A stretch of 64,000 nt of DNA, from contig NC_092670.1 of the NCBI RefSeq assembly GCF_964355755.1, forward strand, positions 12,820,795 to 12,884,794, read 5' to 3'. This DNA is from Antedon mediterranea. Its lineage: Eukaryota > Animalia > Echinodermata. The position numbers and the translations under genes were made by a program. Positions 23,499 through 63,736 of this stretch are shown here, in pieces. Below the pieces are notes generated by a model. The model made no database searches and was not told where the DNA came from. It worked only from the letters and a program-made list of their open reading frames with translations. Each line of letters starts with the position of its first letter. Position 1 is the stretch's first letter.

Positions 23499-24474
23499 AA
23501 TAATGGTATTCGGCTTGTCGTCAGTAAATGACAGCCATTCTAATTCGACTAAAGATGAATAGGTCTACTACCAGTGCTTATTATTTATGATTATAGTCTC
23601 ATAAACCTATAGGCACGGTTCCACAAAGAGTACCAGCGTTTAGTGTATCAGGGCTACATCCATAATCAGAAAATATGGGATGTTTCATAAGGGTACCTCA
23701 AGGAAACATTAAGTAAACGTTTGCAACTGTTTCAGGCATGCTCGGGAAAAAAACTGATGAGCACCACATTTAAAGGCTATTTTCACAAGATCAATCTACC
23801 TCTGTATTACAATGTTATAGAAAATACTTACAAGGTAACAAATTATTATTACAAGGTAACAAATGCAATAGGCCTAATAGTTAACATTGAAAAAAAACTC
23901 AATATAATTTTATTATTATATAATATAAACCCGGATAGAAGATACCATCCATTCTATACACTCTATTTCTGGAATGATAATAAACACATTTGGCAAATGA
24001 AAATATTTAGATAATAAATGATATAGATCGTTTAATTTTCCTACTCTACCGTTTCGAAGCCCTATTAATTTCAGTCGGACAATGATGAAAGTCCACGAGG
24101 ACGGAACACACTACAATAGAATTTTAAGAACTATTGTATCTTCCAAAGGTTAGTGCTAATTCCAGCAACGACTTTCCGCGTTTTCTTTAAATAAGACATA
24201 ATTTGGATATTTTACAAGGAATTTCAAATCAGCGGAACTATTGCCAATGACTATTATTATTGCTAGTACAAATCATACCATTATTAAATAAATAGATGTT
24301 TCATTACAAAATGCTTGCCAAGAAAATGTAACTCTTATACATTGAAGTAAGTTTATGTAACGAATTGAAATTAAATTCTTTCTGCTAGTCTCTTTTCATT
24401 TCATTTTAAAATGATATAAAAATGATGTGAATGATAATAAAGAAGCAAATGTCTAAAAATATACCATGTTGTTA

Positions 24475-36490: not shown

Positions 36491-39400
36491 TTAGAAGAAA
36501 CATGCCTCATCTGGAAACACCGAATCGGGCACCAGCTGGTCTTGACATTTTCTTGAATTCGTCGATGGTGACATCGGTGTGGTCGGACACTTAAACCATG
36601 GATGGTCAAGAATCTCGGCAGCGGTCAATCGTTGCGATGGCTCGACTCGCAGCATGCTACGAATCAAGCATTTCGCCTGTGATGATACGCTGTCCGGGAG
36701 TGTGTATTTGCCACGCCGAATCTTGTCGAATAGCGCCGTAGGATTGGAATCGTGGAATGGGTATCGGCCCACAAGCATGGTATACAGCATAATTCCGAGG
36801 CTCCAGACATCTGCACAGCGACCAGAGTACGTAGTACTGGTGGTCAAGATCTCGGGGCTGACATACGCAGGACAACCATGTTTGTCACTCATTGCATCTA
36901 CTTCAACATTCTCCAATAAATAAGCATCATCGAGTTTATCCAGCTTTAATCTTGTTCTGCAAAGATAACAAAAAAATTACGTTAAATATTTATTTACCAA
37001 TCAAATTCTAGTTTGTTTACCTTCATTGTAGAAAACAAAATAAAAAACCCCAATCTGATTATAATCTAAATATAGCAGAACATTGATGTCATTAAAAGTG
37101 TGGTTACAATAGGCAATAGACACAATGGTATATATAGTAGATATATACAATCAGGAAGTCAATAGATAAAAATATTATCCTAGTATCAGGTGATGGTAGT
37201 GGCCATGAACAAATGGTGATGCAATAACACAGTTCATTTAGGATGCAAGTGTATTGTGGGAATACACAAACTTTTGGAATTACTATTTATTAATATCCAA
37301 AACTAAACTCATTTTTTACATTTATATCACAAGAATTTCTTACTGTAAATAAATTTAAATGTTTTATGTTTGAGGTATACGGGTTTATTTTCCAATCGAA
37401 CAACTCCAAACAACATCACATCATACTGAAATAAGTTTATATACTATTTTCAGAATATGAATTTTCATTTCTCATTTATTTATTTTATAATTTATTTTTT
37501 GTTGTTCACTGTGTAAAATCAACCTGTTAATTACTATTAATAACTAACTGGTTGACTGGTAAATATGAGTTCAACAAGTACTATGGGTTAGTCACAAGTT
37601 AGTGACTAGAGAAAAAAAAAAATGATAATTTGATAAATAATAATGTTCATTCCCTTCTTAGGGTATTACAGTATATACTATAGTGTATCATATAAATAAG
37701 CAGGCTCTCAATGCACTGTACATAAAATTGAGAGAGTAAACATGAACAACTTTAGCAATATTGTTTTAAATGGAAACACACATTTGCCTCCTACACTGTA
37801 CTGTACCTACATGGGACAGCACAGTTAGACAGTCCTCATATTAAATTTAGGTTATAAGGTTACTGGATAGTGTCATGTTACTTTAATGTAGGATGTGAAT
37901 GTGTGAGTCATTATTGTGTTCCTTTGTTCCCTGTTTTCTTCTAATTTGAACCATGTGAATATCATCAATAACATAAGACAGGAAATTGTCTGGGACTAAA
38001 AAGAAAATTAATTTAGTGTGCAATTAATTAGCACAGGTAGGGTAACCGGATTTATTCAATTTACACGGATAAATACAGCTGCCCAACAGCTTATTTATGA
38101 ACTAAACCCCTATTTAAATAATGGTTTCTGCCATTCAATATTTTTTCTATGTTGAAAATATGTACAGTTTGTTCACCAGATAAATGAAAAGCCTATAATT
38201 ATATAACTGTTGGCCCATCATTGAAATTCCTATTGAATAATGGATTATTCTATTTAGAATTCTAGAGTGAGATCAGGTCAACCATACCTTTGCCTATGGT
38301 TCAACCATAGTTCAACAGAAGCCTATTTCAAACAAAATCCCCTATTGCATAATGGGCTCTCCCAATCAGTATGTGGTACAGTTTAGTGAGACTGGAGACT
38401 GCACTGTAAATTGTGCAATCATTTTGTGTGCAGTGTACCGTGAGCTATTTTGGCATGATGGAATTATTATGGTATTGCATAAGACGAAGACGAATCATAC
38501 ATTATCAATACACTCTCATCCATAATATGTTTCTGCTGTCCATCACGACTGTATTGAGTAACTTTTTAATTATAATTGTGAAAACGAATTGTCTTTCATT
38601 TTAATTAATGTACTGTAATATCAGATAGTCCTCATAAAATGGGAAAAATAAATGGAATGCGAGATAGTCAAATTCTTAATTCAGGTCTAGCTTTATCAAA
38701 TTCTTCATCGAATAAAGAAGTGTTGCAAGTACTGTTATAAATGTACTCAACATTGTGTAATAAATCTATTATTTAACAACCCCATGCAATAGAAAGTTAA
38801 TGTCAAATTTCAACAGCATGAGGTCTATGTTAAATTTACCTTCATCTAAAAACATCCTTCTATTAACGAGCATAATGCAAGTGGATGACTGTGATAAATT
38901 TACAGGATTCACATGGATACAGAATTTAAATGGTTAGACAAATCATTTTTTGACGTCCTCAAATCATCATTACAGTTACTGTACAGTACATCTTTAATTT
39001 AATAACATTCCATGATAATGATACCTTAAAAGTAAGATGGCTAGACTATACCATGGATTAAAGAATAGAAGGATATGCATCGACGGTGACATCAAACGAT
39101 TTTACAACGCGCTTGCCTATACTAAAGCACTGCTGCCAATCAAACAAACACGTTCATTGAACTCCGTGTCTCTAACCGCGGCCCTCTGTAAAACGCTGCG
39201 AATCAACTGTTACATTTTTTGAGACCAAAACGTAACCATGTAGAAATCGTATGCGCAGTCTGAATGTTCTATTGACATGTCTGCGTCGATGATTAATTGA
39301 TAACAAACATATATTGCTGAATAATTCTGTTTTAGTTTCATCACAATCGGACTACGAAAAGTTCACTTTCTTACGACTGGTAATTTTAGGTAGTTGGTAA

Positions 39401-41442
39401 TATTAATAAAATATGCCATTTTTATATTTGAATTATCATTATTTGCCTGCCATCTTCTGTCATTAAAAATTGCGTTAATCTATAGAATATTAAATTATGC
39501 ATTTGACCATGTATGTTGTTAGCGTGGCCGGTGTTCAGACATACAACAATCGTGTTTTTTAATATATGGCTAAGCAGTGGTTTCTTCATAAATCTCCTTA
39601 ATTATCGATGTGATTATATTTAAACTGTAGTGCCTGGTGATTGGCTAGGGGTTATGTCATCCACATCACATCCAATCACCGGGCCTAATTGAATGAAAAC
39701 AGCGATCCCTGATCCGGGATTGGCTGGCTATGTATAGTTGCGATTCGTTACCTAGCGGTCGTTTTGAAAAGTACACGCAGGGCAAACTTGATCACGAACA
39801 AACGAAGTAGGCCTACCTATTATTATTATTCACACAAGAAGTAAGACAACGGTGAGTATTTAAGATTAGCCTAGGCCTACCTAGGCAGTATCAATGTCGG
39901 CAAATCATAGGGTTTACTAGCCCAGTTTAGCCTAGTTAGTACAAGGCCTGGGCCTAGCTAGGCTAGCATTCTTGCTGATTTTGTAATTTTACAACAAATG
40001 AGACAACTAATAGTTATTGTCTCAGATGTAGGGCTACTACAGGTCATAAAATGCTACTTTAATCATCATAAAAAAATCATTAGCGTAGATCAATCGCGGC
40101 AGAAACCAACATAGTCAATAGTTGACCATCTACAAACATCATGCCACCAAAGAACGCGCGAAAGAAGCGTAGTAGCCAACAAGGTTAAATGTCGTTGCAC
40201 ATGTGCAGTAAACAATATATTAGGCACGCGACCGTTTCGTTGTTACCATGCGGTTAATTAAACTGTAACATTGTGGGCGGTCCGCGGTCTGTCGGCGAGA
40301 GTCAAGGAACCCTTGATCTCACGTCGATGCATATCCTTCTATTCTTTAATCCATGACTATACCTGCCAACTCTCGCGCACAATGGACAAGTCTCATGCAC
40401 AAGGGCCAATTTGTTATGCCTCAAGCGTACGTGGCTATTTCTCACGCATCCATAAAATATTCAGAAAAAACATTTTTAATTTAATGTCTCGCGCATTGGC
40501 CACTGTAAAAGTTAGCAGGTATACCAATTAACTTACTGCACGTCAAAAAATATTTATTTAATTTTCTCTCACCTTTGTGAATCACGAAAAACAAACTTGC
40601 GGAGCTTCAAATCACGAAGTACAACACCTAAACTGTGACAGTGCGCTACAGCTGCGACGATCTGCTTAAAATATTGCTTTGCTTCGTCCTCTGGTAGCTT
40701 TCGGTTGCTACGGACATGCGAGTGCATGTCCCCGTAGCCACGTTCAAAGAATGCGTAAGCGTATGAATCTCCTAGTAATATTTCTAGCACCTGGTTAATG
40801 TTTTCATGTTGTCCTACGTGAAAATTAGCTTTTAATACTTCTTGGTATTTCCGAATGTCTATTGCCTGAGAATGAAAAATAAACACGCAATTTTTACTGC
40901 TATACCGTTACATTTATAGTTCACTACTACTGTCAAAACGATAAATTATAATGTTAATTCATTTCATGTGACACTGACAGATCTTTTCAGTTACAATCTG
41001 TAATGATTTTCTCCTAGCAGTTTTCATTTGCATACAACATTAACATTTGTACTTAAATTTGAATATGAATAATCTCAACGACAGGTCCAAAACTTAAAAT
41101 TGTGAAATGACGATAATGGAGTTATGTTGCAAATAGTTTAAAAGGATGAATTCATAAATGTTATTAATATTATTTTACATAAAAACATACCTTGCACACA
41201 CATTCTTCTAAGGTTAGACTGTTTACGGCTTTGAACAGCTTACTATCCACTTCGTCCAGTAAAACATAGTTCCCAACTTTACAAACTACATTCGGTTGCT
41301 GTGGCGTAAAATTTGGTGGTGTTGGCGCTGATAAGTTCGGACTAAGAGAAGCGGTAAAATCTCCAGGTGAATCTACAACATGGCTATACGCCTTGTTATT
41401 ATCGCTTTGGATTGCAATTGGTTGAGATCTTTGAACGCTCAT
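36491..41442 (-). CDS. TRIB2: Tribbles pseudokinase, ~336 aa
   Basis: Exons 41442-41191, 40865-40573, 36956-36491. Motifs [25 protein letters not shown]-binding ILDHPWF and COP1-binding DQLVPD. Probably the single pro-orthologue of TRIB1/2/3. Confidence 0.95.
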
Positions 41443-44400
41443 TTGGAATCAAGGGTTTTATATTGTTTTGTAATAAAAAAATTTTAAAACAAAACAAAAC
41501 CTTTAAATTTCTAGGTATTTTTAAATGTGTTCACTCAGCTGCTGTGATACTGTTCCTTCCTTATTATAATTAAAATTATATATTATATCAGGTGACAAAT
41601 TTTAGCAGTTTTATTCTTTACTAGAATAATTAGTCTTTGGTATAAAAAAGTATGTACAATGACAAAGTCTTCTTAGAAATATTAAACAATAACATCGGTC
41701 CCTGAGACAAAAACATTAAAATCTCGCAAAAGATAGTTCATTCATAAAATATGACGAAACAACTGAACTGATGTTGAACTAATATTGCTGAAAATCAAAC
41801 TTATCTTCGTATAATTTGATTAACAAATGTCGATAAAACTATTTACACTGTTTAGCCTTCAACTAAGGTTCATTTAAAATAAAATAATTTTCCTATTTTA
41901 TTTAATTTGACTGACGAAAACCTCTTTCACGCCCTTGATGTTTACGTTGATGTATGTTGGTGGGGCGGCGGTTCTTTAGCGGCACGGTTGCTGTTCAAGG
42001 TGGAGTCGACTTCGCAGAATCACCAAGTATTTTACTTACAATTTGTGTTATTACTTCAAGGTAGATTTGCTCTTGTCTGCTTGGATACTAGCCTAGTTGT
42101 TGATGTTTTGAACAATTTCCACCTATCTGCCCGCTAAAGGGGACGGATTTACCGTCAGTCTTTCTCGCTAGTTGCGAGAGTTTTCTGTTTCGCAACGATT
42201 GCAGGCCATTTTGCAACGTGTGAGTGTGTCATGAATGAGTACAATGTCTTTCATATACCACTTCTACAAATCTGTTTACTTGTATTAATACGCGCCAGGT
42301 TATAGTATTTCGCAATAAATTCTTACTTATAAATTATGATATTTTATCATATTATATATAAAGCAACTATTCATAAAATATATTTAAAAACCTATATCAA
42401 ATAATTTCTTGTCTTAGTTAAATATGTGCATAAAACAACACAAACTAAATGGGGACTATGTTTTTCATTAAGATTGTAAATTGGCTAGACACAACAAAAA
42501 ATTGGCAATGGAATATTTCGGGATGTTGCAATCTTAAAAATGACGCAAGCGAGGCCGGTCTCAGTTTACCAAATATGGGCATTCAACTTCCATATTTGGT
42601 AATGTAATCGTGACCTAATGACGGGCGTATCCAATCATCACGTTCCAATGTAAATGCGGATATCGTACGGTTTTTCATTGTTTACAGTATTTTGTGTGTG
42701 TAGCTAGCTGCTGATACGACGACGATGAATCAGGCAGGAATTTAGTGACGTAAATTTAGAGGAAACCGCATGCAAACGATCAAAAGAACAGAAGGGATTT
42801 TGCGGGACGGTTACCCTCTTTCTAACATCATCATTCTTTTGTCTTCGTCGTTCAGAATATTTGGCTAGCCTATTTATTTATAATATACGTCAACCGGTGT
42901 ACCTACCATTTATAGGTACCTAGCCATAAGCCTAGGCCTATTGATATTTGTCATGAGCTTTGCACAAATCAACATTAATAGTAATAATACATAGTTTTAG
43001 GCCTATTTCAGCCCCCAGTAATTAAATTCATCAATCAACCAGGGAGACCCTGGCTATATTAATTTCTGCATAGGCATGTGCATTCCTCCTAGGCCTATCT
43101 TATTGCTGGAAGATAAAAATAAAAACATCATAAAAAAACAAGCGATTTTATATAATTTACATACCAATTTCGTTTATTAAAATCACGATTGAAAGGCGGT
43201 CTGAATATCACACGCGCGCGACTCATCACGTACACGGATATGTAAAACGCATTGATAACAAACAAAAATCAAAAGATATTCCATAATAATATGAAACACT
43301 GATCCATTTAAAAAATGTAAAATCTGCTTTTTAAAATTTACCATTAATTTTATTCTATACTATACGTACGCGCGCACTTCCTCGTCGCGATCGATCGAAT
43401 TGACGTTTCATTCATGTGCGAGAGGAAGATCGGCGCGCGGCGCAAATACGATGCACCAAGTGGGCGTACAGTATTATTATATCAAAAGATTGTATAATTA
43501 TTTATTATGGACATGATTTGAATAGCGGCGCTATACAATATTTGCTTTTATAATGATAGAAAATTACAATACTGTATTGTAATTTTGCATCTTCAATACT
43601 ATTTTTGTTAAAAACCCTATTATTAACCGGCTAATTGTCATCGCAAAAAAGTCTAAAATTGCAATGAAAATAGAACATAACATTTATTTAACAGCAGTAC
43701 TTAGAATCTCCAACTTGCACGATTGTAAATGGTCTACAAATTGTGTTTGTGTAGAAGAAGAAGCTGCGTGAGCATTTAAAAAAGTGGTCTGCTGTCCTCT
43801 ATTTTTTTAGTCGCTATTTAACATCGGTCTCTGAATTGCCTTTTTTTAGGCTTATGATAACTTAACAGATAGTAATACAGTACTAGTACAATACCGTATA
43901 TGCATTATTAGCATTAATGGCATATAAATACAACATTTTATCTATCTAAACTCCTCTATAAAAGGCACTAATATTATTTGGCATGCATAGAAAGTACATA
44001 CATATTTTTTAAAAGTAAAGTTTACCTATATAATAAACTACAAGGATTCCTTAAACAAAAAAAGGGTTATCTATACTATCAAAAAAAGTGTGATGTGGCC
44101 AAATATGGTAATAATATGACATCATCATGTCCATATATGGGCACATCACATTTTTTTAAACAATTGATAGTGTAGACAGGGCTTTAAAACTAAGATGTAT
44201 CTAATCTAATACAACAAACTTAAATATATTTTACTTGATAAAACCAATTGACTAAAATTAGCCTCCGATTGCTCTTGGTCTATGTTTTTAATGGCTAAGC
44301 CTAACCTACCATTACTGAACAATTTATTTTATGTTACCATTTTCAAAAATACCTGTTAAGCTCTGTCTACACTATCAAACTTTATGTGACAAGAAATGTG

Positions 44401-44742: not shown

Positions 44743-47700
44743 CTAAGGCACTCTATGACGATTTTTTCGCTGTATCATCAATCGTAATTCTTTATCTTCA
44801 TTTAAGTCTTCCATTTTCAAAGGGTTCTGGTTTCCACATCCACATACTGGACACCTGCAAAGAGACAGGAAACTTAATAGTTATTTTATCAGTGAATTTA
44901 TGACCTCTCTGTGACCCGATTGTAATGTAAACAATATGGCCAAGAATGATTGAATAACTGTAAACATAGCGTTTGGACGTCGCAATGAATTTTTGTTTAA
45001 TAATTACATTTGCCATAATCCCATTACAAATTACCTTTTTAACATACCAAAATGGCTAAAGGAGTGAGTAAGTGGTCTTGCTAGAGATAGAGTAACACAT
45101 TGAACCAAGATGAATTTCTTAGATTCTTTTAAAAACACTTTTTCTAATCAATTCAGAGAAAAGTACCAAAAAGCCAATTTATTTAGATTGTGGTTTACCA
45201 TCTCCACATATAAATACGTCTATATTTTCTGGGAAGTGCATTCATATGGCAAACCTGGACGAAATGACCCACCATAGACATTCTCCCAGGCGAAAGCCTG
45301 TTTCATAGACATATAGATCTAGTAGGCCTAGCATGTAAAAAAATCACTTTAATTTGGAATTTCAAAACTTTATACAGTTCAAATCAGATTGTATACAAAT
45401 GCCTATCAAGAAAAATTGTTTGTTCTTTCTGAATTATTATTACTTAGGTAATAAATAAGAAAGAAATACTGTACTACTATAAGGAATAAATACTACTACA
45501 CTCCGAGTTCATAAGTTCTAATAAACGCAGCATTATATAGAGTACAGTACTTACATAACCTTTCTCCTAGAAGTCCTAATATAGTTGCTAATGGCTGCTT
45601 TCTCGTAGCTGTGTCCGCAGTGCTTGTTTTTCATTGGTTCCGTCATCTCAGACTGTGTTATTGGACATTTGAGACTGATCTCCATTTGTGTCATCACAAA
45701 CTCCTGGCTATCTTCAAATTCAGTTTCTGATTGAGATGGTTGGTATACAGAACCTATAAAACCAATGAATACATAGTAATAAGTCAACTGTCCCAATACA
45801 GGACACCATGTTACAGGCCAGAAAAACCAGTAATATTTCACAGAAAATGTTTGATGGGCAGTAACACTTAATTATATAGGCTCAATAAAATATGGGTTAA
45901 AGGACAAAATAAAAAATAAAGCCTTCTTTACGCTGATCCAGAGAGAATGAAAGAGGAAGAGAACGGAAAGAGAATGACGGGAATGAAGGAGAAAGAAAAT
46001 AAATGGGGAAGGAAATGAGAAGAAGAGAATAAACAGAATGGAGGAAGAAATAGAAGAAGGAAGAGAATAGACAGAATGAAATAAGTTTAAAAACTCTCTT
46101 TATATATTTGGTAAAATCAACTGGGGTAGGGCAAAACATTTTGAACAAGTCAACTTTTTTCAAATACAATTAAAATAGGAACACTGAATGTAAATCTTTA
46201 TATAAGGTTTAATTCTCTGTATACTTCATTGCTTTATCATATTTTAGACATAGCGATTTTTATCAAAAATACCAGTATTATCTATAATATAACATTATTG
46301 AATGACCTGTGCAGTGGGTTGTCCCCCAAAAAAAAAAGAAAACAAGGCCATATACATGGCTGCAGTCGCTTGCGCAAATTTGAGTTAGTGTTTACCAACC
46401 GGCATAGTGAGCTGTAGAGTAGCCTAACAATAGGAACACTTGTTTACCTGGGTTTTGTACCTGCCAAATTTGCTTCTGCATATCCTGGTAATGATCATGT
46501 TCCTCTAGAGGCGTCTTGTTGTCCTCTGCTTCAAGTTCCTTTACGGTACTCTCTAACATTTTAATAACACTTACTTCTGAAGAGCCAATATTAGAGTCAT
46601 TGGCAACCTTAATATATGAAAGATTGTCATCAAAATGTTATAAATAATTATCATAATTATAATCTTATTATTTAAAATGTCATATACAAATTAATAGCTA
46701 TAATATAGAGACAACACATTTCTTGGAAAGTAAAATTAGAATGTTTTAAGCCGGAGGAGATTGTAGCCTGCATTCATATTAGACTTAGCCCTGGCTAATC
46801 AATTTTGCAGGAAAGATATGTTGTCCTGAAAATGTATTGGTTCGAATGCCACTTTAATGGATTGTCCCATATTAGTTCACTTTGATCAACAATTGGATGG
46901 AAAAAAAATATTTACCTAAAAAAAATGTAATTTAAAGCAAAACATTGTCAACTGGCTGTCAGCCAATAGGTGTTGAATTTAACCATTTGTCTTTTCATAA
47001 GAGAAAACATTGTTTTTTTATATTAAAACTACAAAATGGCTAATCTTCAGTTTTCATGTTTTTGGGGGACAATACATCTTTAATATTTAGGGTCAGTGTG
47101 ATCAAGGCTTAAGCTATAATATGTTATATTTTACGACTTTCAACCCTGTTAATGGTGACGTTTGGTCACTGTAGGGTGATGATGAAATAAAATTAAAAAA
47201 AAGCTAACCATTACTGGATCCATTGGTTGCTATACATTATTTACAATGGTAAACTACACACCTGTTGTCTTACTGTATCAACTGCTTGTTTAAACTGATC
47301 CAAACTTCTCTCTAGAGCTATCATCTCAAGCATTGTGTTTTCCATCTCTTTCAACTGTTCTGATTTGCCTGTTAAAATAATCAATGCAAAATTAAATAAA
47401 TAGTTTTGGCAACAGAATCATTTCTCCCAGTACAGCAGTAAATTCAAATAATATTTTTAATCAATTCAAAGAAGCATAATTAATTGTTAAGGATCCCACA
47501 AGTATGTAAGCGCAATGCAAGTAGTTGACCAATCAGGACGCAATCATCATCCATTGCATCATGATTGGGCAAATTAATTTGTTGCTAATGTGTGACGCAC
47601 CTCTAGTAAACATTGAACAACCGGTTGCGCGAGGTAGTTTGTGATGTGTTTAAAACGTGCAAATCTGTTAAAATGCATCACACTTGGGGGTTGGAACATT

Positions 47701-50386: not shown

Positions 50387-53300
50387 ATGGACGATTCGAC
50401 AACAATGCAGGTAAATAGTAAAAATATTTTTTTTCAACTTATAACTAGCTAGGGCCTAGCTGGCTAAGGCTACTACTACTACTAGGCCTACGCGAGTACT
50501 AGCTAGTGTATACTAGTAATTATTAGTAGGCCTAAATAAGTGTATAGCCTTGTAGTACTTCTACTGTATAGGCCAGTAAGTATTATTTATAATAATTAAT
50601 ATATTCATTCAGCAAGCAAGTAAAGAAAAAAAAGAAATTTCAATCAATGCTTTTTTTGTTTCTACATTCTATTGAAAAATGTAGTTCAAAGAAAAAGTTA
50701 TTATAAATGATGATGTACCTACCATTCGACCAGTAATTTTGCATATAGACTTCACAACACATGAAGATAAAAACTTTAATTATACACTATTTTTTATATT
50801 TTATAATTAAATACTATACATTAGGCCTATTCCTTTTAAACAGACTTCACCACCACCAGGTACTTTTAAGTCTAAAGTGGGACTTGTATTATCATGCGTT
50901 GGTTGTATGGTTGGAACTGGAAACATATGGCGTTTTCCACGGATTGTTGCAAACAATAGTGGAGATGAAGGTAATATTTAATTTCTGCACAGTGCATCAA
51001 TTCTATACCTAAATACCTAATATTAGCCTCATAAGGGTCCTCATCATTAAAAGATGCCACTGAATGTGAAGAGACAACTGTAAAAGTAAAGGACAATTTT
51101 TAGAATTGTTTTTTAGTTTTTGGAACTTTTTTAGAATGACCTCAAAGTGGGGAACAGGAGGTTGATTTGCAGCAATTATTAACATACTTGTTTGTATATG
51201 TTTCAAATATCAATTTCTTTTCTCCTTTCCTCAAGTGTGTGCAGTTTTATTTCTGTTTGAAAAAGTCTTCCTACTTGCACCTTTTCTAATTTAGTGATAG
51301 TGTTTTGTATGTGATGAGCTTCCATATAATGAAGCCATACTCAAGTCTTCAACTCTCTTTTGCGATTGTAACACTGTGTTTCCGCAGCCATAACACAAAT
51401 TATCGGTGAATTTTTTTTTTAGCAATGAGATACTGTAATTAATACAAAATCAAGTTGAATGAAATTGGTTAAAGCTCAGGTACAGGCATGAATTTTAAAT
51501 ATAATATTTGGTTAATTGTACATAAATCAAATATTTGTAATAGCCTCACTATTTACAAAATTTGTGTACAAAAGAATAGAGATTTTACTGTGTAATTTGA
51601 ACTATCCCCGCACTGATAAAAAAATGCTTATTTTCAACAAACTCGTGTAACACAAATAAAATCTAAAAAAATTATGAAACATAGGGGAAACTATAGATCG
51701 ATAATTATTGGAATGTATGATCAATAGAAATTTTTTGCCCGCACCTGGCCTTTAAACCCTTACTGTTTTCAGAGAACCTTTAATCGTTAAATTATCGGCG
51801 AATTATTTTTTAAAGCAATGAGATACTGTAGTCAATAAAAAATCAAGTTGAATGAAATTAGCTAAACCCTTTACTGTTTTCAGAGAACCTTTAATTGTTA
51901 ATTATCAGTTTTTTAAATTAAATTTTGGCTCATTGAATTCTAATTTATGATAAAATAAATATTGCATTAATTGTATATTATACAAAGCTAATTATAATTT
52001 CATTCAATTCTATCTACGTTTGCATATTTTATTAATTTATGCCCCTTTTGTATAAATAATAAAATGTTTACTTTCCAAATAAAGTTAATTTTATCTGAAA
52101 ACTACTGTACCGGTACAGTATATTAAAATTTTGACATTTTCTAAAATGGATTCATAATTCTGTAAGCATTAATATATTATACAATTTACATAAATGCATT
52201 TAATTCTTGGGTGAGATTACTATACTACTGAACTATGACCTCCAGATCAATCAATCTTCCTCTGATGGCTAAAGCTCTGTCTACTGATGTACACTATCAA
52301 ACTAGTTTGACAAAAAAAGTTTAATGTGCCCAAATATGGTGGGGATGCCTAAATATGTTAGTGATGACATCATCATGGGCACATCACACTTTTTGTGTCA
52401 TATAAAGTTTGATAGGGTAGACAGCTTAAGGTTAGATTCGAGCCCAAGTGCGGTTAGTTATAAATTGACCATCTTTTTTGTGCAGTAAAGTAGGCTGTGG
52501 TTCAAGTCTCAATCCTAAAAAGTTTCCTGTTTTACTTTTTCCTAAGTACAGAAGAAAGTACAATTTTTGAATAGATCCTAATAAATTTTTGTATAACTGG
52601 AAAATTATTACCTTTTTATTGAACCTTTGTGACATTTTGTTGACAAACTACTGTGTGGAATGATCTATACAGCGCTACACAGCGTCTCCAAGACCATTCT
52701 AAATAGTTTGTATTGTTCTTTTAATACTGTAAATTGTACTTAAAAGGTAGAGTAGGGCAAAACATACTGACCAATTATAAATGTATTAATTATTTACTGT
52801 AGTCATAGTGCAGCCAGATTTGCTAATAATATCAAGCATTTTATGATACCATAAAACTTGAAACTTAACATCATAAAGAATTAATGTACATTAAAACAGT
52901 TAAAAACAAGACAAAACAAATCTGGATTTGAAGGGTCTAGATGGGAATTAATAAAGAAGTGGAGCTGTAGCTTGGTGGTTAACACACTTGTCTTCTAATC
53001 CCAACGTCCAGGGTTTAATCATGACCTAGTGTCAGGGTTGTAACTCCTACTATTTCAACTCCACTCCCTAAGTCTCAAATAAGACTTAGTTTATAATATA
53101 AGCAAGATAAATTATAAAATAAAATAGTTTATCCATCCTGTAATTGGCGAGTTGCTCGCTGTTGGATGCAAAAAAAAAAAATTATTTTAGAAATATAATA
53201 TATTATTTTTAAACAATTGGAATGGAGTTGTGTGGATTCTATGTACATTAAAATAGATTGAACCTGCAGCGCCACAAGACTGGGATTTTTAGACTTGAAC

Positions 53301-56300
53301 TCCACTTCAATTTGTAATGTGAATAAAACTGTATTTTTAGTTTTTCAGTATTTAAAAAACAATCAAACATAATTTTTGCTTTACTACTAATAGTACTATA
53401 CTAATTATTTTATTTTTATTCATACGCATCCAACAGCAAGCACAAACTCGCCAATTAAAGGATGGATAAACTATTTATAATTTACCGTGCTTACAGTAAA
53501 CTCATTTGAGGCTTAGGGAGTGGAGTTGAAAGAGCTGTGAGTTACAACCCTGGCACTTGGTCAGGATTGAACCCAGACACAGACTTTTTGGATTGGAAGA
53601 CAAGCACTACTAATAAATAAATGTATTTTGTTTTGTTTTCTCCTGTTTCATTTAATATTTGTAATACTGTTTTTGATTTTGTTGTTTAACATTTTAAATG
53701 TACATTATTGATGAAGTCCTGAGACAAGCTTTTGCTTCTATAAGTGAGAGGGCCCCATGGATTTCATTGTTATCCTGTAAATTAAACAAAACAAAATTCA
53801 CATTGTTTACTTCACCTGATCATTTCTGTTGACACAAATCGGCGAATTCATCTGAATAAATAATGAATTGATTAGTTGATTAAATATTGCACTCAATTTA
53901 AAGTATAGGTAGTGCTGTAGGTCAATCTGTCCTAATAATTTGAAAATATCAGAAAGAGCTGGTATCGTTTGGGATTTTTAAGCCTTGGACATTTAGGCCC
54001 TTTGCTGTTGGTATTATAAAGCATGATGATATGCATTATAAAGCTTATACTCGAATGAATGCACGTGAAGACACATAAAAGAATAAATACAGAAAACATA
54101 TTGTGACCTGTGACCTATACAAACAGATTATCCTATTCATACCTAAAACCTCAGTTTCACTGTATTTATTTATTCTCTCAGCATAATAATATGACAATAC
54201 AATAACATAGCAGTACAATGAATTGTTTAACTTCTCAAAAACTGAATTACAGTATATAAAGTTTGTATTTAATATTATAGACATTTTGAATGGAATGGTT
54301 AAGTTTGAGAATGTTGTCTAGTCCAGATTGTGATGATAACTTTGATACCTCTCTAAAGAAAAATAAATATCTATTTAAAATCATGTGACAGACAGAAATA
54401 AATAGAGAAAAATTGTTTGTGTTTAGCCCAAAAGTTTGTTTTTATAATTGGCGTATACCACTTACTTAAATCAATCCAATCAATGTATTTCTCAAAATAA
54501 AAATAATCCAATGTAAAACTTAACATCACTGATATTGGTAATCAATTGTTGCCAATACAGTAAGTTACCAAAATATTACTCTGTGGTAGGGGCCTAATTT
54601 TTAAAGACATAATTTTTTTTTAATTGCAATTTGTTGGAGTTCTTTGATTTGTTAATAATATTTTATAATTGATTGATTGATACATTTGATTTTTTCAGGC
54701 TGCCTTCAATTCATCCTTGTGTGGATTTTGTTCCTGTTCATATGGTCAATACCCATGGTGCTTATAGAGTATGGTGCGGGTCGTTTCACCAAAGTCTCCA
54801 CAATATTGTCATTTAAACGACTAGTAGGTCTTAAAAGCTCTTGGTGTGGTGCTTGGGTGGCCCTCGTTGACTTGGGAATTGCGTAAGTCTATTTGAATTT
54901 TTTCATACAAGACCATAAGAAACTCGCTAATTATACTAAGGTTTAATGTCCCCTGAATAAGAGTTGGCTGTTGTGTTAACATACATTGGTCCTTGTTTGT
55001 TTTGTTTCACAGGGAAGTGTTCCCTTTAAGGCCAACCACTGACGAGTGTTAACATTAAGCAGAAAATCGAGTATCTTGTCCCATGTACAGTCTCAATCTA
55101 TCCTAAGCGGAAACCGTCCGTCTTCTAAATGTTGTGTGTAAACGAAAGGTCATAAGGAATAAAATGGATTCAGTCTATATTTGTATTTACTGTTACCACT
55201 CGTCTGTGTAAATTGACCTTAATAGTGTTGTCCCAAAAGACGGTTCTACTGTATTATATTGCATAAGTTAATTTAAAAATGTGATAATTTCGTGTTGTTT
55301 TTTCCAGATCATATTACTCAGTTGTTCTTGGATGGTGTTTCTACTACTTCTGTTATTACTTAGTCAATGATCTTCCAACATCATATGAGCAGAGTTATGC
55401 CACATTTAATGACTTTGCTGTGGTGAGTTTGATTTAATATGCATTTTATTATTCTGTCCTTTCTTTTTAACACAATACAATGTTTTTTAAAAGTTTGAAT
55501 TAGAAAAAGCTTGAGAAAACATTTTTAAAACAGAAAATCATATGAAAGCTTGGTTCCTACTATGATGCAACGCAAGAACGCATACGTAATGCAAGAACGC
55601 ATACGTAACGCAAGAACGCATACGTAACGCAAGAACGCATACGTAACGCAAGAACGCATATGTAACGCAAGAACGCATACGTAACGCAAGAACGCATACG
55701 TAACGCAAGAACGCATACGTAACGCAAGAACGCATACGTAACGCAAGAACGCATACGTAACGCAAGAACGCATACGTAACGCAAGAATGCATACATAATG
55801 CAAGAACGCATACGTAATGCAATTTAGTTGACCGATGATAGGCGACCGTTTGAATAATCCAATAATCGCTTGTTATAGGTCAAATCAATTGCGTTCCACT
55901 TAATCTCTGTTTACACTATCAAACTAGTTTGAAGTGTGATGTGCCCAAATATGGTAGTGATATACCCAAATATAGTAGCACTACTATATTGGGGGTATAT
56001 CACTACTATATTTGGGCACATCACACTTTTTTGTCACATACAAAGTGGTCTTGGTTTGTTGTAACTGCTGTTAGATTATGTTTATTTTATTTTCTTTGTA
56101 ATGTGTGTAGGATTCTGCATGGCCTGTTTTCTTCCACTTTTTGTCTGTGAGTTTAGCAGCGTTAGCCATAGCTTGGGGAGTCAAGTCCATTGAACTTGTC
56201 AACACTGCAACTGTGCCAATATTTCTCTGTTTGATTCTTTTCACCCTAATCTGGTCTCTTACTCTTGAGTATGCCGGTGAAGGGCTTAAGTTTCTCTTCA

Positions 56301-59300
56301 GTCCTGATTGGGGTAAGTTTTTTAAAGTTTATTCGTTTGGTTTATTTTATATTAGTATTCAGTGTATATAAAGATCATGATACCAGTTGACTGTACAGGT
56401 GTAAACTTTAATTTTAATAAAACTGTATTTGTAAATTTGAAATGTAATGTGGTTTCAATGTATTATGTTCATATAAACCAATAATGAACTTGACATCAAA
56501 CAGAGTTTTGTCTAACTAACCAGCTTGACTGATAGATCAACTGGTTATCTAGGCAAAACTGTCTTTTACAGTAAATTGATGTGTCATACTGGAGGATAGC
56601 ATATGGTACATTAATTTCTGCACTCATAATTTAACGTGTAACTTTTATGTTATGTTCGCGCATATAACCATACATTTTGTGTACCCTTTATCTCTGTTTT
56701 TATCTTTAATCACAAAGATCACACCTATATTATTCGTCAAAATTACTAATTTAAATCTTGTTTAAATTGGTTTATATTTTAATGAACAATACCATTTGTA
56801 AAGTTGTGTTAGTTAATATTATACACTATATCATTATTACACTAATAGTATCTTACCATACCAGCATTTATAACCCTAAGCATTGTTATTCTTTGTCTAT
56901 TTATAGATGTGTTTATATACTGTATGCCTCTGCACTACCACTAATGCATAATTGTTAATAATTTATTATAATTTAAGTGTTAATTTATTCATTATACTTT
57001 CTGCATGTTTGTACATTGCATACTTATAATTAATATAAATTAGAAACTAAGACAATTGTATACTATGTTTGTGATACTTTTTCTATAGATGAATTAGCAG
57101 AAGCACGATTATGGATCGATGCCGTAAGTCAGAACGCATTTGACACTGGTGCAGCCAGTGGTCTGTTCTTATCTTACGCGGCTTATATGACAGCCGAGCA
57201 CAGTATTGTTAAAATCGGTTTTCTCATTCCGATTGGCAATAACTTGGTCAGGTACTAGAAGAACAAATTGCTCTAAATTTAGTGAATTCATTATCTTTAC
57301 ATTCTTAGATAAACCTATTATTTTCCAGTTCTCTTTCAAGATAGAACACCTCTCTAAAACAATGGGAATGCCGATTGTGAAGCAAGAGGCGTATTCTGAC
57401 TGGTTACCCACAAACATCTCGATGTGACCTTAGCCCACTGCTCGCATACTAGAAAAGCAAAGTGCTAGATCGGCTGATTATCTGCTCAAAACAGCCCAGT
57501 CGAATATGCCTAGTATGTCAGAAATGCACCATCCCATTATTACTATTAGAGGAGGGTTTTAATTGAGAGAGGACAGGAAATGATTTGTTTATTCAGAGAG
57601 GTGGCACCTCATTCTCACTACTTTTATGCATTTTTATTGCTAGAATTTCAATTTATATTTATCAGGCTTTCAAACAATTGTAGGCATACATGCAGACCCA
57701 AACATCTTTCCACATTTAGATAAACTCATTATTTTCATGTTCTCTTTTAAGATATTTTAATACCCCCATAAACAATGGAAGATGCCAAATGTTGTGCAAA
57801 ATAATGTAAAAAAGGACTGTTCCATTATTAGATGAGGGTTTTACTTGTTAATTGGTTTATTCAGGGAGGTGGCACCTCATTCTCACTGACATTTAAATTA
57901 TTGTGATATCATTTATCGAGCTTTTCAACATTTTTTAAGGCCTACAGGCAGACACAACGTATTTACCTAGTAAACAAACATCATTTTCATGTTCTGTTTC
58001 AGATTTAGTTAATAGTTTTGTGTTTTGTTTTCAAATTCATTTGATTATTATTGTTGTGTATCATGAATTTGAATTAAATAATGCATTTAATGCAACAGTT
58101 AAAAAATACAAATTTTATTAGACAATCAAATAAAATGGCATAGCAGATATCTACAGCATATCTGGGAAGAAGTGAATTCTGTTACTGTTTATAGGAGACT
58201 TATATTCAGTCAAATTAGTACTGGAAGAAGTGAAGTATATGCCTTTAGCCATAAGTGAAGAAATAGATTCAGTCACATTAGTACTGGAAGACGTGAATTA
58301 TATGCCTTCTTCCATTAGTGAAGAAATAGATTCAGTCATATTAGTACTGGAAGATGTGAATTATATTCCCACTGCGTATAGATGAAGAAGTAGATTCCAT
58401 TAAGTACTGGAAGAAGAAGTATAATATGTCTGCTGCCATAGAAGAAGAAATAAATACAATCAAATTAATACTGGAAGAAGTGAATTATATGTCTGCTGCT
58501 ATAGGAGAAGAAGTAGATTCAACCTACCATCTGGACATATTGAGTTGGGTGCTGTATAGGCCGGAGAGTGATGATGTCATGATACAGGAATCTGACTAGC
58601 ATGTGATAGGCATGGGTTTGAGCCTGTCTCTGTACCATATTGATTGTATCCTTAGGCAAAATGCTTTTGTTCTCATTGCGTCATCAATTTGATGGCACAT
58701 AAAGCTGTTGGTTTTACTGTATGTACAAAAAAAATAAAGAACTTTGTACACTATTCGAAAAGAAGATTATGGCATCCTCTCCTGGTGTGCTGATCTTGAC
58801 TCCTTGCTGCCGTGGATCCGTACAGAGCTTATTTCGAATTGACTCAGTTACCAGTTAAGCCTGCAGACGATAAAAAATACTTTTATATTTCCAGCCAATA
58901 TATTGATATAGTTCACATATTAATTGGAATAATTGAAATATCATTACAGATAAGCTTACTGACGTAGAAACCTGGAAAGAGGCGATAGTCCAGAATGCGT
59001 ATGATGTTGGAGCAGGCTTCGGTCTCTTTCACACATATGCTACATACATATCAGACGAAGTTGCCTTAGTCCCTTTAGGGGTTTTCACGCCCATAGGAAA
59101 TAATCTAGTCAGGTACACTCCCAAAATATTTCTCAGTAACTTGGGTGCATGCGATGAAGTCATCTTATCCTCTTTAAATGTATACTGGTGGAAGTCTTCC
59201 ATCCTTCATTTTTTTTCATCTAACTCCATCCTAAAGAGTTGAAGAGTTTTATTAATTAATATCATTGTGCATGTTATTCACTCACCTTAACCGCTTTAAA

Positions 59301-62300
59301 TACAATGTGATTATAATAGTGGAGGTTTTTCATCATAACTTTTGGTCTGTAATTGATGAATATGCCTGTTTCATTTTAAATTTTTATAGTACCCCAACCC
59401 CACAGTCTGAAGAGTAAAAATCAATCAGAATTAATTTATTTTACAGTTTATTTCTTCAACATAAGACATACTAAAGTGTAGTATAATGTATAGGGAATTG
59501 TATCAAAATGGCTTAATAAAGCAGCAACTGATAATATCCAGTATCATAGGCAAATTGTGTAATACTGTGTCATACTGTATCACATGTGACCCCAGTATTA
59601 TGTTAAGGTTAGGTTTATGACCTATGATACATGTCACATGTGATACATATGACACAGTATTACACAATTTGCCTATGATAACATTATAGACATAAGAATC
59701 GGCTGAATACTATGAGAATGCCATCGACTTTGACAAAATGTTGTGTTTGTTATACAGAAGACAGTGTCTATATTCAATTGAGCAAGAGTTTATAACAGTG
59801 CTGTGACAACTCGGTCATCATTTTATTGTCTGTCTGATAGAGTTTTAAAGTCAGCTGAAGTTTATTGTCTCATAATAATTTTATTTTATTTGGTTTACCG
59901 GTTGCCGGTACTGTGTTGATTTTGCAATTTCTCTTATTAATTATATACTGTATAAATACAAGCTTTTCTTTTAACCTTTGACTTTAACATTAACAATATG
60001 CCAAATATCTATTCTGTCTCAAGCATGCCTGTTTTTATACTGTATCATTTTTTTCTATTGGGATTCTGTACCAGTACACCTATGCATAATAAATAATGCA
60101 TTGACACTTTGTCACTACAATTTGCATGCGTCGGAGGTAAATTTAAATACACATCTACCTGCACAAATTCAAGGCCTCAGAAACATGCATGTAAGAGAAT
60201 CATGAGGAACGGATGCTAATGAGAAGGGGAAATATCATATGCATATTTTATTCTGTGTTATTAATTATGTTTTCTTTAGCCCCAGCTTTGCACAGATCAA
60301 AGTGCTTTACAAGAACCAATCATTTATACCCAAAAATTGTGTTTAAATGACTGTATTTTAATCATAGAATTACTGTTTAGATGCATCACCACCACACACA
60401 CACCCACCTTCCCTAGTTTCCTCTTTTTTAAAGTTTGCATCTGCCAAGAGTGCACCCTATTTTTAAACCTAAAATGGAATTATGAACTAATTATTGACAT
60501 CTATTTTTGACAACAGACTATTATTGTTTTAAACTCCCCTGTTCTTTGGTCTGCTCTTGTCTGCACATGACTATAATATTGGAATATTTGTATTGTATGT
60601 TACTAGCACAGTATGACCTACTATTCATATGCTATATGTTTGGTTAACTATCCATAACTAACCCACTAAGCTTCAATATATCAACCATTATCTATTTGGG
60701 CCTATTTTTGTCTTGCTATTATTGGTGACTATAGGCCTAAGCATATCAGTTTTATTACCGGTCACGGTACCTTTCATATCAAAGTTCAATAATAATTGAA
60801 TACTACACTGCAATCATATTCATGTTTACTCTGTAGCATTTCAGTAGAACCTAAAGGAACACCTTTGGGAGCCAGCCAAGTGTAACCCCCGAATAGAGGT
60901 TGACCATAGTGTTAAAAGACATATTCAGCTTGTTTGTTTTACTGCAAAATGCCCCTTAATAGAGGTGTCCGAAAGGAGGGGTTCCACTATACATTTTGCA
61001 TTTACCATAACAAAATTCACTCACATTTGGTTATTGTTATAACCGTATTGCATAATATTTCTTATTCTATGCATGTTATTTTTTTTTAAATAACATTCAA
61101 ATTACGCTTAGTAATATCTAATATTTAATAATTAGTGTATTTAATTCATATTTTAATCACGTAGGCTGAGAGTTCATGTGTGCCCTCCTATTAAAAATTT
61201 TTTGTTATATATCCATATAATAGTTATATTTATATATATTTTTGTTGATATAAAAACAGTTGCTTTATCTATCGTTTTAGAATTTGTATTCGCTTTAATA
61301 AATTAATCATTTATTTTATCCAAATATTAAAGGGACACCTTTGGGACTGAACAAATTGTCCCATTAGTAAGGGAGTCCAGCGTTAAAACATATTTCCCCT
61401 CATTCATTTCACAGGAAAGTGTCTCCTTAATAAGGGTGTACCTTGAATAGGGGTTTGTTTTTGTGTTAAAACATAATATATTTCCCTTCATTTGCTTTAG
61501 GGGTGTCATGTCCTTCAAATAAGAGTTCCCCCTCCCACAAATAAGGGTGTCTCAATGTAAGGATTTTATTGTAGTCATAAACAATTCATTATGTATCACT
61601 ACCAATTTTTATTATTTTTTTACCCATTTCAGCTTATCCTGTGGGATGCTTACATTTGCTACAGTGTTCGCGACACGTTTACAAGCAAACGACACAATAG
61701 AAGAAATTGTAGATATTCTAAAAGACAACGGACCAGCCAACACTGGCTTAACTTTTATATGGTAAATATTTAAAGACAATAGCAGTCTATTTTTTAACCC
61801 TCCAATTGCCATTTTTGTTTAAATATCATGTTGTTTTTTCTGGCAATAAATAAATGAATGAAAACAATTATGGTATATTTCTTTTTATTTTATCAACCAG
61901 CCAGCCAATTTTTTCTGGAGAAATAATACTCAGAATTGTTCTGTTCTCTTTCCAAATTTTCTATTCTTTCTTCTTTCGTTGTTCGGGTCTGAAAAGTGTT
62001 CCTCAAATCCAAAACCGGTCCGTTATGTGGAATTGGCGTTAAACTGACTTCCTCATGTAAAAGAAACTGCAGCAGCATTGATTGTTGATTATTTTACATT
62101 TTTGTTCATAGGTTTCCCTTGCTGTACGAGACAATCACCGGAGGGCGTGTTTTAGCTGTGTTGTTTTTCTTTGCTCTGTCGTTAGCTGGATTGAGCTCCA
62201 TGATTGCTAATGTTGAGTTGTTCGTTCATAATGTCAAAGATCTTGGAGGTACTGTAAATTATTTATGAATAGCATCAAAAATGTTTTTGTATTTTATTTT

Positions 62301-63736
62301 TAATATATAATACCCTCTATTTTCTATTTGGGTTTCTATGAGTTATTTTGAGAAATCACTTGATATCATTTCATCTCTGTACAACAATTTTCGGTTTCAA
62401 CATCTATTTACACTAGTAATTAAAAGTAATAAAGTTGTTAAGTATAAAATGAATTAATGACGTGATACTAAAAGTAATGGAAAATGAGTTTTTATTGTTA
62501 TCTCATGATCAACCGTCGCCAACAAAAGATAAAATTGAAAATAAGCTGATAAAATGTTGTTTTGATATAGAAAACAAAATTAACAGTTTTCATTCATATT
62601 GATTGTGCCATGCAAACCTTAAAACAATATATTACAGAACTTTCTCTACTACATGTGAAATAGACAAAGTCATTGAAACCTTCTCATAAGTCCTTGCTCA
62701 GGTTCGAGTCTCTTCTTGTTGTTCATAGTTATTGCGGTTCTTTCTAAGCTCTGTCTGCACTATCAAACTTTATGCGACAAAAAAATGTGATGTGCCAATA
62801 CAGCATATGAACATGATGATGTCATATTATTACCATATTTAGACATATACAGTAACTACCATATTTGGGCACTTTTTTTTGTCAAACTAGTTTGATAGTG
62901 TAGACAGAGCTTTAGGGAGGGTAAGCACTGGAGGTCCAGTGTTGTATATCTCTGCCTTGCAGCTTGTAAATACATCTCTCTGGAGAGTGAAAGGGTGTTA
63001 TTCCTGTGTTCTCAGTACCCTGTCCTGGATAAAAACTTTTTGTCACCTGAGTGCTAAGGGGAGAAGAAAGTTGTCTGGGCTGTTTTTTTCTGTAGGATAC
63101 AAGTCACAATTCATTCCTACCTACCTTCACATTTACATAAAGTATAACATATTTTTTTTTTCAGTGAAACGATGGCAAGCCACGATTGGATGTACTATTA
63201 TCATATTTTTAATAGGTGTTGGTTCAGCTGTCAACTTGCAATTCTTACTTAACCAAGTAAGATACCACACAATTTTTCTACTAAATGGCTTTGCATAGAA
63301 ATGATGAAAGTATTTAATTAATTTAACTCATTGAAATATATTACAAAATAAAAGGTCACTGCTGTAAACATAAACAGTTTTTCCAAATAATTGTATGTGT
63401 ACATAATTTGTAGTTACTGCAGTAACTGCAGTAGAATAATTTTAAACAGCGTTCATAGAACTTTTTACTCTCACCTGCTTCATACCACTGTAGAACATTT
63501 CTGTAAAATATTTCTGTTTATGAGAAGTTACAAATCTTTGTCATAATTATTAAATTATTATTTACACAATTTTCTCTTTTAAAGGATTTTGTTTGGGGAT
63601 TCGCATTAATTATATCTGGAACCTTGTTCCTGTACATGATTTATAGATATGGAGTTAGAAATTTCCGCCAAGATATGTTTAATAACTACAGCATATCTGA
63701 CTGGCAACTTCCTTTAGTTTGGGAATGGATTGTTAA
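50387..63736 (+). CDS. SLC6/NSS sodium-dependent transporter of prokaryote-like type; 3' end lies outside the window
   Basis: Exons 50387-50410, 50844-50970, 54699-54882, 55308-55422, 56111-56312, [57089-57251 OR 58950-59112], 61633-61761, 62112-62248, 63165-63256, 63585-63736, all in phase. NSS signature VGTGNIWRFP, plus SYYSVVLGW, GLKFLFSPDW, GLTFIW and LAGLSSMI. Confidence 0.9.
52961..53170 (+). mobile_element. tRNA-derived SINE
   Basis: A-box-like TAGCTTGGTGG, tRNA-like head, shared core and A-tail. Confidence 0.75.
53426..53610 (-). mobile_element. tRNA-derived SINE, inverted relative to 52961-53170
   Basis: Reverse complement of the same core (CTCATTTGAGGCTTAGGGAGTGGAGTTGAAA; GGATTGAACCC). 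Confidence 0.75.
55569..55821. repeat. 19-bp tandem repeat ACGCAAGAACGCATACGTA, ~13 copies, expanded inside a MITE-like element
   Basis: Period 19. The left flank AAGCTTGGTTCC.ACTA.GATGCAAC recurs at ~11981, and related sequence occurs at ~30880 and ~47500. Confidence 0.9.
57089..57251 (+). CDS. SLC6 alternative exon 6a (EL3-TM6-TM7)
   Basis: ttctatag|...|gtact, 163 nt, phase 1 to 2: DELAEARLWIDAVSQNAFDTGAASGLFLSYAAYMTAEHSIVKIGFLIPIGNNLVS. Confidence 0.9.
58150..58522. repeat. Degenerate ~58-60 bp tandem repeat, ~6 copies
   Basis: Recurring AGTACTGGAAGA.GTGAATTATAT...GAAGAA.TAGATTC. Confidence 0.75.
58950..59112 (+). CDS. SLC6 alternative exon 6b (EL3-TM6-TM7), mutually exclusive with 6a
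   Basis: cattacag|...|gtacac, 163 nt, phase 1 to 2: DKLTDVETWKEAIVQNAYDVGAGFGLFHTYATYISDEVALVPLGVFTPIGNNLVS. Confidence 0.85.
59542..59680. repeat. Near-perfect inverted repeat, ~48-bp arms with ~42-nt spacer
   Basis: 59542-59590 TATCATAGGCAAATTGTGTAATACTGTGTCATA.TGTATCACATGTGAC is the reverse complement of 59633-59680 with one indel. Confidence 0.9.
62747..62911. mobile_element. MITE with TIR AGCTCTGTCTACACTATCAAACT (full-length copy)
   Basis: Both TIRs are present, with internal GATGTGCC/ACCATATTTGG repeats as in the other copies. Confidence 0.75.

Follow-up and report, generated by a model that had tools for sequence, protein, structure and literature searches.

Three sources (PMC8373072, PMC9741552, PMC7954323) report that tandem exon substitutions are over-represented among transporters and channels, and SLC12A1, SLC7A2, SLC25A3, and SLC39A14 are among the entries of a human catalogue supplement (PMC8373072). 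In SLC7A2, a LeuT-fold amino-acid transporter, substitution of a tandem-duplicated internal exon distinguishes CAT-2A from CAT-2B (PMC8373072 supplement), and the two forms are described in PMC5803215 as differing by tissue and, via a cytoplasmic loop, about ten-fold in affinity for arginine. Exon 4 of SLC12A1 (NKCC2) exists as mutually exclusive homologous exons that encode one transmembrane helix (PMC8373072), and these exon variants differ in ion affinity (PMC6873903). Drosophila MRP (ABCC) provides an invertebrate transporter with tandem exon substitutions (PMC7954323). The term "SLC6" gave no match in the human tandem-exon catalogue supplement (PMC8373072), and the fly-list supplement, in which MRP is listed, gave none for snf, SLC6, NAAT1, or SerT as gene names, CG names aside. 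No report of swapped exons in SLC6, or in the subfamily considered here, was found in the openly accessible literature. Specificity in SLC6 is ordinarily altered through gene duplication.

Here we describe an SLC6 gene of the feather star Antedon mediterranea in which exon 6 is present in two copies. Eleven coding exons, from 50387 to 63736, were placed on the + strand of the window, by which we mean the whole 64-kb stretch of DNA that was analysed:

50387..50410, + strand, coding exon 1 with the start codon (match to the N-terminus of XP_071958674.1; RNA contig joint to exon 2)
50844..50970, + strand, exon 2, TM1 including the unwound substrate/Na+ stretch (Pfam SNF, E 1.9e-8)
54699..54882, + strand, exon 3, TM2 and the start of TM3 (frame joining and predicted structure)
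55308..55422, + strand, exon 4 (frame joining; the overhang of the RNA contig ahead of exon 5 matches the end of this exon)
56111..56312, + strand, exon 5, the upstream constitutive exon (frame joining; RNA contig)
57089..57251, + strand, exon 6a, alternative, isoform X1, residues 219-271, the conserved orthologue-like copy, with TM6a, the unwound Ala-Ser-Gly, TM6b, and the first half of TM7
58950..59112, + strand, exon 6b, alternative, isoform X2, residues 219-271, the faster-evolving copy, with the unwound Gly-Phe-Gly
61633..61761, + strand, exon 7, the downstream constitutive exon with the rest of TM7 (frame joining; RNA contig)
62112..62248, + strand, exon 8, TM8 including the shared pocket residue Asn348 (the start of the exon is seen in the free overhang of the RNA contig)
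63165..63256, + strand, exon 9 (frame joining)
63585..63736, + strand, exon 10 (the coding sequence continues for its last ~110 codons outside the window)

XP_071958674.1, the RefSeq isoform X1 of A. mediterranea (551 aa), is a 100% match to 6a, and XP_071958681.1, isoform X2 of the same cluster (551 aa), carries 6b; therefore, both forms are already present in automated annotation. Both were matched by Pfam SNF (PF00209), at 164.8 bits for X1 and 161.1 bits for X2 against a cut-off of 27. The transporter falls under the label YocR/YhdH/HI_0736-like, a branch of SLC6/NSS with uncharacterised, bacteria-like members that ranges over sponges, corals, molluscs, flatworms, echinoderms, hemichordates, tunicates, and amphioxus. 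By similarity only, it is not nearer to the GlyT, GAT, monoamine, or nutrient SLC6 subfamilies than to prokaryotic NSS. Bacterial relatives reach an E value of about 1e-124, none of them with a solved structure; the best solved relative is MhsT (E 2e-37 by sequence and 6e-74 as a profile), GlyT2 being weaker at 7e-28. Antedon and Anneissia are each represented by a single cluster among the best 120 matches.

Exons 6a and 6b are each 163 nt long, are preceded by AG and followed by GTAC, both terminate in GTCAG, and are stop-free in the same frame, running from phase 1 to phase 2. The equal length and phase, the open frames, the AG/GT borders, and the shared GTCAG/gtac ends that a preliminary description had reported are thus borne out on the sequence. 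A single copy, either 6a or 6b, joined to the other nine exons yielded an open frame of 441 codons, and coordinate joining placed a stop at codon 240 when exon 6 was left out and at codon 273 when both copies were included, which confirms the earlier claim that both or neither would break the frame. The identity between the copies, previously put at about 27 of 55 residues, has to be corrected to 25 of 53 whole codons. At the nucleotide level, 90 of 163 positions are identical, and agreement at codon positions 1, 2, and 3 is 32/53, 38/53, and 16/53. Between 6a and 6b, pS is 0.82 and pN 0.34 (Fisher p 2e-7): the protein has been kept although changes at silent sites have reached saturation. Both exons matched the same stretch of the Pfam SNF profile, 244-294, with E values of 3.9e-4 and 6.1e-3. 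As a control for chance, 1 of 7989 intronic 163-nt windows was found to be open with AG..GT ends, and it was without homology to the gene; a tblastn search of the window detected neither a third copy of exon 6 nor any other doubled exon. The pair shows the hallmarks of tandem-duplicated mutually exclusive exons, namely, neighbouring homologues, equal length and phase, canonical splice sites, and a frame that holds with one copy. These twin exons are a real, conserved mutually exclusive pair, and 6a and 6b are very probably both in use.

Five sequencing runs contained the stretch, none of which was recorded as RNA, and four were mapped (run X1 and three DNA-type runs). A contig in run X1 joins exon 1 to exon 2; therefore, this run includes spliced RNA. 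Mapping of run X1 to 56090-61800 at 97% likeness gave 10 contigs. An RNA contig of 1579 nt, at a depth of 19.7, carries the joints 56312-58950 and 59112-61633 with GT..AG ends and extends into exons 4 and 8, so that 6b was used and 6a was skipped in that transcript. RNA cover of 6a was nil in this single RNA run, which represents one sample and whose contigs drop rare forms; the 6a isoform is backed by conservation and by predicted RefSeq X1 models in two species. Thus, both 6b junctions expected from the preliminary description were present, but the one RNA run gave no 6a cover. Its claim of mutually exclusive use is likewise upheld in part, by the frame logic, the 5-6b-7 splice in RNA, and the RefSeq isoforms, but not by 6a RNA in that run. 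All three DNA-type runs, which derive from one sample and possibly from the source of the assembly, contained each exon with its intron flanks, in separate contigs. In X1 and X4, an A>G variant at 58987 replaces Ile230 of 6b by Met; no variant was listed within 6a.

Exclusivity may result from competition between splice sites, and transcripts with double or zero inclusion, which carry early stops, would be cleared by nonsense-mediated decay. Steric exclusion of 6a/6b co-splicing is unlikely, the intron between the two copies being 1698 nt long. In a search for docking-site/selector pairing over seven region pairs, the best 30-nt duplexes were no better than those of 4 to 8 shuffles each, and no inverted repeat able to act as a docking site or selector was found.

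Repeats were noted in the introns. A 63-nt tandem repeat of five copies (58204-58521) lies between 6a and 6b and harbours, at 58391, a chance open AG-163-GT window without homology to the gene. Two to three imperfect direct repeats, of 36-51 nt families, occupy 57293-58014 after 6a, and a 19-nt tandem repeat of 13.4 copies with 96% matches is located at 55569-55822, in the intron ahead of exon 5. At 59542-59680, 430 nt past 6b, there is a perfect nested inverted repeat with arms of 33 nt and 15 nt, which is MITE-like and shows a high repeat depth. The neighbouring-gene span is 22593-46637 on the - strand, and the following features were placed in the window beside the transporter gene:

13826-17164, membrane-protein gene (no Pfam match for the one exon scanned)
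22593-23564, - strand, MFS transporter exon (Pfam)
24700-26034, - strand, single-ORF fucosyltransferase (Pfam)
36491-41448, - strand, kinase-domain gene (Pfam), which we take to be tribbles-like
45551-45871, - strand, Nse2-type zinc finger (Pfam)

Anneissia japonica, a member of another comatulid family, is annotated with both exons as well. Its RefSeq isoforms X1 and X2 (461 aa each) differ solely in the exon-6 segment, and X1 and X2 are equal in length within each of the two crinoids. Between Antedon and Anneissia, 44 of 53 residues are identical for 6a and 30 for 6b, cross pairs ranging from 25 to 31; constitutive exons are 0.68-0.91 identical, and 6b lies below all of them. This comparison was made at the protein level, pS and pN having been computed between the Antedon copies. 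The groupings 6a+6a and 6b+6b were starred clades in three trees of 53 columns each, and a separate duplication per species, which would place Antedon 6a and 6b together, was rejected (p-AU 0.0098). At sites conserved in the family, meaning those unchanged in 90% or more of the animal rows, Antedon and Anneissia 6b share 13 of 14 residues, versus 17 of 39 elsewhere (p 0.0015); therefore, 6b is fast but constrained. Both copies are, as judged from these alignments, under purifying selection. The Anneissia pair, the rejected separate duplications, the saturated silent sites, and the intact frames together sustain the earlier view of an old duplication with both copies maintained. The duplication would predate the split between Antedonidae and Comatulidae, with 6a having stayed orthologue-like and 6b having diverged; 6a resembles the exon of other echinoderms, sharing 38 of 53 residues with the single exon of a sea urchin. 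Among non-crinoids, a swap of this segment was seen in 0 of 21 clusters, whose members are 48-53 of 53 identical, in a check to which unannotated exons are invisible; 23 clusters were examined, and the comparison excluded eight members that were short as well as the Amphiura cluster, which has one member. No third 6b-type animal exon emerged from a 6b search of 50% representatives, which gave 31 matches with the best at 55%, and a profile built from both 6b copies matched Anneissia and three bacteria-like proteins.

As judged from alignment and models, exon 6 encodes TM6 together with half of TM7. The models of both isoforms have a mean pLDDT of about 90 and an identical helix layout, in which exon 6 contributes a helix at 223-237, an unwound stretch at 238-242, a helix at 243-248, a loop, and the first half of the helix at 257-289; helix breaks occur in both at 31-32 (TM1) and 238-242 (TM6). 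Foldseek assigned the 6b model to the LeuT fold with a TM score of 0.78. Residue 241 aligns to M236 in the Gly-Met-Gly loop of MhsT and to a Trp in GlyT2. In a preprint on MhsT, M236 is equated with LeuT F259, the loop is described as setting pocket volume, and the M236F mutant is reported to have lost aromatic uptake with no gain of Gly or Ala transport (10.1101/2020.04.03.022970). PMC9599917 calls this site a volumetric sensor and places Trp there in glycine transporters and in the broad SLC6A14 alike. The equivalence of residue 241 with LeuT F259/MhsT M236, proposed in the preliminary description, is supported by the MhsT alignment and by the preprint.

At residues 240-241, the two 6a copies have Ala-Ser; 6b has Gly-Phe in Antedon and Gly-Trp in Anneissia. 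Hence, the contrast first described as Ser versus Phe at LeuT 259 is kept in Anneissia as Ser versus an aromatic residue, but the aromatic there is Trp. The Phe/Tyr difference noted at LeuT 253 (residue 235) proved to be confined to Antedon, since Anneissia 6b has Phe like 6a, which rules it out as a conserved switch. A GlyT2-like start of Antedon 6b is absent in Anneissia and was taken as chance. Strict diagnostic sites between 6a and 6b are 222, 237, 240, 246, 257, 259, 263, and 264, with 241 as a ninth by class, and five of the nine lie from position 246 onward, at a distance from the unwound loop. All four crinoid copies have Gln232, Asp236, and Asn268, which are almost invariant across the family; since they are kept in both copies, ion coupling is presumably shared, and both isoforms, whose site residues look conserved, would carry out Na+-coupled solute transport.

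Across the 99 rows classed as animal (118 rows less 19 bacteria-like ones), site 241 has an entropy of 2.86 bits, the third highest of 53, and the other sites from 232 to 242 reach at most 1.3, those next to 241 being nearly invariant. Trp occupies it in 19/19 bacteria-like rows. Paralogues differ at this site (W/N/H in Saccoglossus, M/M/W/H in Glandiceps, M/W/Q in Ptychodera, and G/S/W/W/F in B. lanceolatum), and those with a different residue at 241 are altered in TM8 as well, at residue 348 (MhsT L328 by alignment), which is Asn in both crinoid isoforms and lies outside the swap. The high variability at 241 could reflect mere tolerance. Two observations point to amino acids as the substrate class. 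Gly32, which we take to be a feature of amino-acid carriers, is present in TM1. An exopeptidase is found beside the gene in 8 of 14 bacterial loci (M1 in six and M14 in two), as revealed by scanning 32 of 64 neighbouring ORFs in loci that are related to one another. In loci L001-L003 and L007-L009, the bacterial relative directly follows an M1 aminopeptidase with HEAT repeats, located upstream of 5001 (3783 in L002), and aminopeptidase P is nearby in five of these six, which suggests a peptide-scavenging cluster.

Asp236 (57142-57144 and 59003-59005) is invariant in 99/99 animal and 19/19 bacteria-like rows, the corresponding residue being Thr in MhsT and Ser in GlyT2. Position 236 presumably has a role at the Na+/Cl- site, and an Asp could give a built-in negative charge near it and thereby a chloride-independent subfamily. 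Several gene models of relatives have unusual structures. In oyster relatives (P0141 and P0045), namely Ostrea X2 and Saccostrea, an N-terminal dienelactone hydrolase domain is fused to the transporter, by read-through or as a real fusion. The 785-aa model of an Amphiura relative (P0013) has a C-terminal extension that matches GIY-YIG weakly (E 4e-4, below cut-off), the gene model having probably merged a mobile element with the transporter, and in a Branchiostoma hybrid (P0104) the TM6-TM7 segment is repeated internally in near-identical form, through recent duplication or as an assembly artefact.

The different substrates proposed in the preliminary description are plausible. From sequence and models, we consider it fairly probable that, by exon choice, one gene makes two Na+-coupled amino-acid transporters likely to differ in preferred cargo. 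Exon 6 would have been duplicated in tandem, one copy being used per transcript, and the predicted pockets of the two forms would be unlike in size and polarity: the small, polar Ala-Ser-Gly of 6a would leave a roomier pocket, and the bulky aromatic in the Gly-Phe/Trp-Gly of 6b, along with Val237, would make a tighter one that shuts out large side chains. The exon swap in crinoids may be the counterpart of whole-gene paralogues in hemichordates and amphioxus. We put forward more tentatively, as a proposal about which we remain doubtful, that the two carriers have clearly different amino-acid spectra and are switched by tissue or stage, with 6b re-evolving a Trp/Phe pocket of bacterial type. 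Against a specificity switch, the analogy with characterised transporters suggests that an aromatic at 241 does not fix the substrate, as MhsT M236F did not gain Gly or Ala and Trp is found at this site in glycine-only and in very broad carriers alike (PMC9599917), and the 30/53 identity of 6b together with Phe versus Trp at 241 also fits partly relaxed constraint. Because five diagnostic sites fall from 246 onward, the main rival is that both isoforms are made and have the same substrates, exon choice serving to adjust affinity, turnover, dependence on ions, or gating on the cytoplasmic side. Diagnostic changes indeed cluster in the cytoplasmic loop and the start of TM7 (Leu257, Pro259, Phe263, and Thr264), the pocket residues of TM1, TM3, and TM8 are common to both isoforms, and the known LeuT-fold exon swaps, CAT-2A/2B and NKCC2, alter affinity. 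We nevertheless regard tuning as rather unlikely, given that a Ser-to-aromatic change has been kept at the pocket sensor, where the milder Met-to-Phe change shifts the specificity of MhsT.

The remaining explanations concern the status of the exons themselves. The unbroken 1579-nt RNA contig that runs via 6b, with nothing on 6a in the one run, and the fast evolution of 6b would suit a gene in which one exon alone is in real use, 6a being silent, minor, or replaced by 6b, or 6b decaying. This is improbable, however, for 6a is as conserved between Antedon and Anneissia (44/53) as the constitutive exons, neither copy has lost its integrity even though silent sites are saturated, and RefSeq models both in two species, the missing 6a cover coming from one sample and from contigs that drop rare forms. 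Very improbable, in our view, is that 6b is a far older variant, dating from before the animal radiation or acquired from a relative in bacteria, that other lineages have lost or that is missing from their annotation. It does match some bacterial sequences at 28-29 of 53, as closely as 6a (25-31 of 53), shares Val237, Trp241, Thr246, and Thr264 with bacteria, and joined the bacteria at 97/97 in a tree with seven bacterial rows. Yet three of those seven rows had been selected for matching 6b, the tree had no more than 53 columns, its 6b branches were long, the tests rejected neither a clade of the four crinoid copies (p 0.30 and 0.19) nor an all-animal clade (p 0.11), and Thr246 and Thr264 also occur in sponge and coral rows; furthermore, 6b matches 6a exactly in length, in phase, and in its final nine bases (five exonic and four intronic). 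We read the bacterial grouping as convergence and long branches. An assembly artefact or allelic duplicate is hardly credible: no single DNA contig covers both exons, but their nucleotide identity is 55% with unrelated flanks, both occur with intron flanks in 3/3 DNA-type runs of one sample, the RNA skips 6a, and a second species has both exons.

The pair itself is already known from automated RefSeq models, as homologous-exon swaps are from LeuT-fold transporters, and the arrangement differs from each of the described systems. CAT-2 belongs to another family, and its TM8-TM9 loop acts indirectly on affinity, whereas TM6 and the pocket sensor are replaced here. NKCC2, a vertebrate ion cotransporter, has three alternative exons that encode TM2. 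Drosophila MRP is an ABC transporter, whose swapped exons presumably encode membrane helices. MhsT, LeuT, and eukaryotic SLC6 proteins share with the Antedon transporter the fold, the (G/A/C)-x-G motif of TM6, and the equivalence of residue 241 with M236/F259, but each of their genes has one fixed motif, and specificity shifts by flexible fit or through paralogues; the subfamily of Antedon is further set apart from MhsT and GlyT2 by the Asp at residue 236. The YocR/YhdH/HI_0736-like paralogues of hemichordates and amphioxus likewise vary residue 241, but they are separate genes in which pocket positions of TM1, TM3, and TM8 have also changed. The pair adds SLC6 to the transporter families in which tandem-exon swaps have arisen convergently. 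Isoforms X1 and X2 would be identical but for 28 residues around TM6-TM7, the sensor included, and offer a clean test of the share of TM6 in specificity as well as a route to deorphan a widespread bacteria-like SLC6 subfamily that extends from sponges to amphioxus. If the proposed reading is true, the two feather stars to which the pair has so far been traced would offer, by nature, an isogenic experiment on the specificity of NSS transporters within an orphan subfamily.
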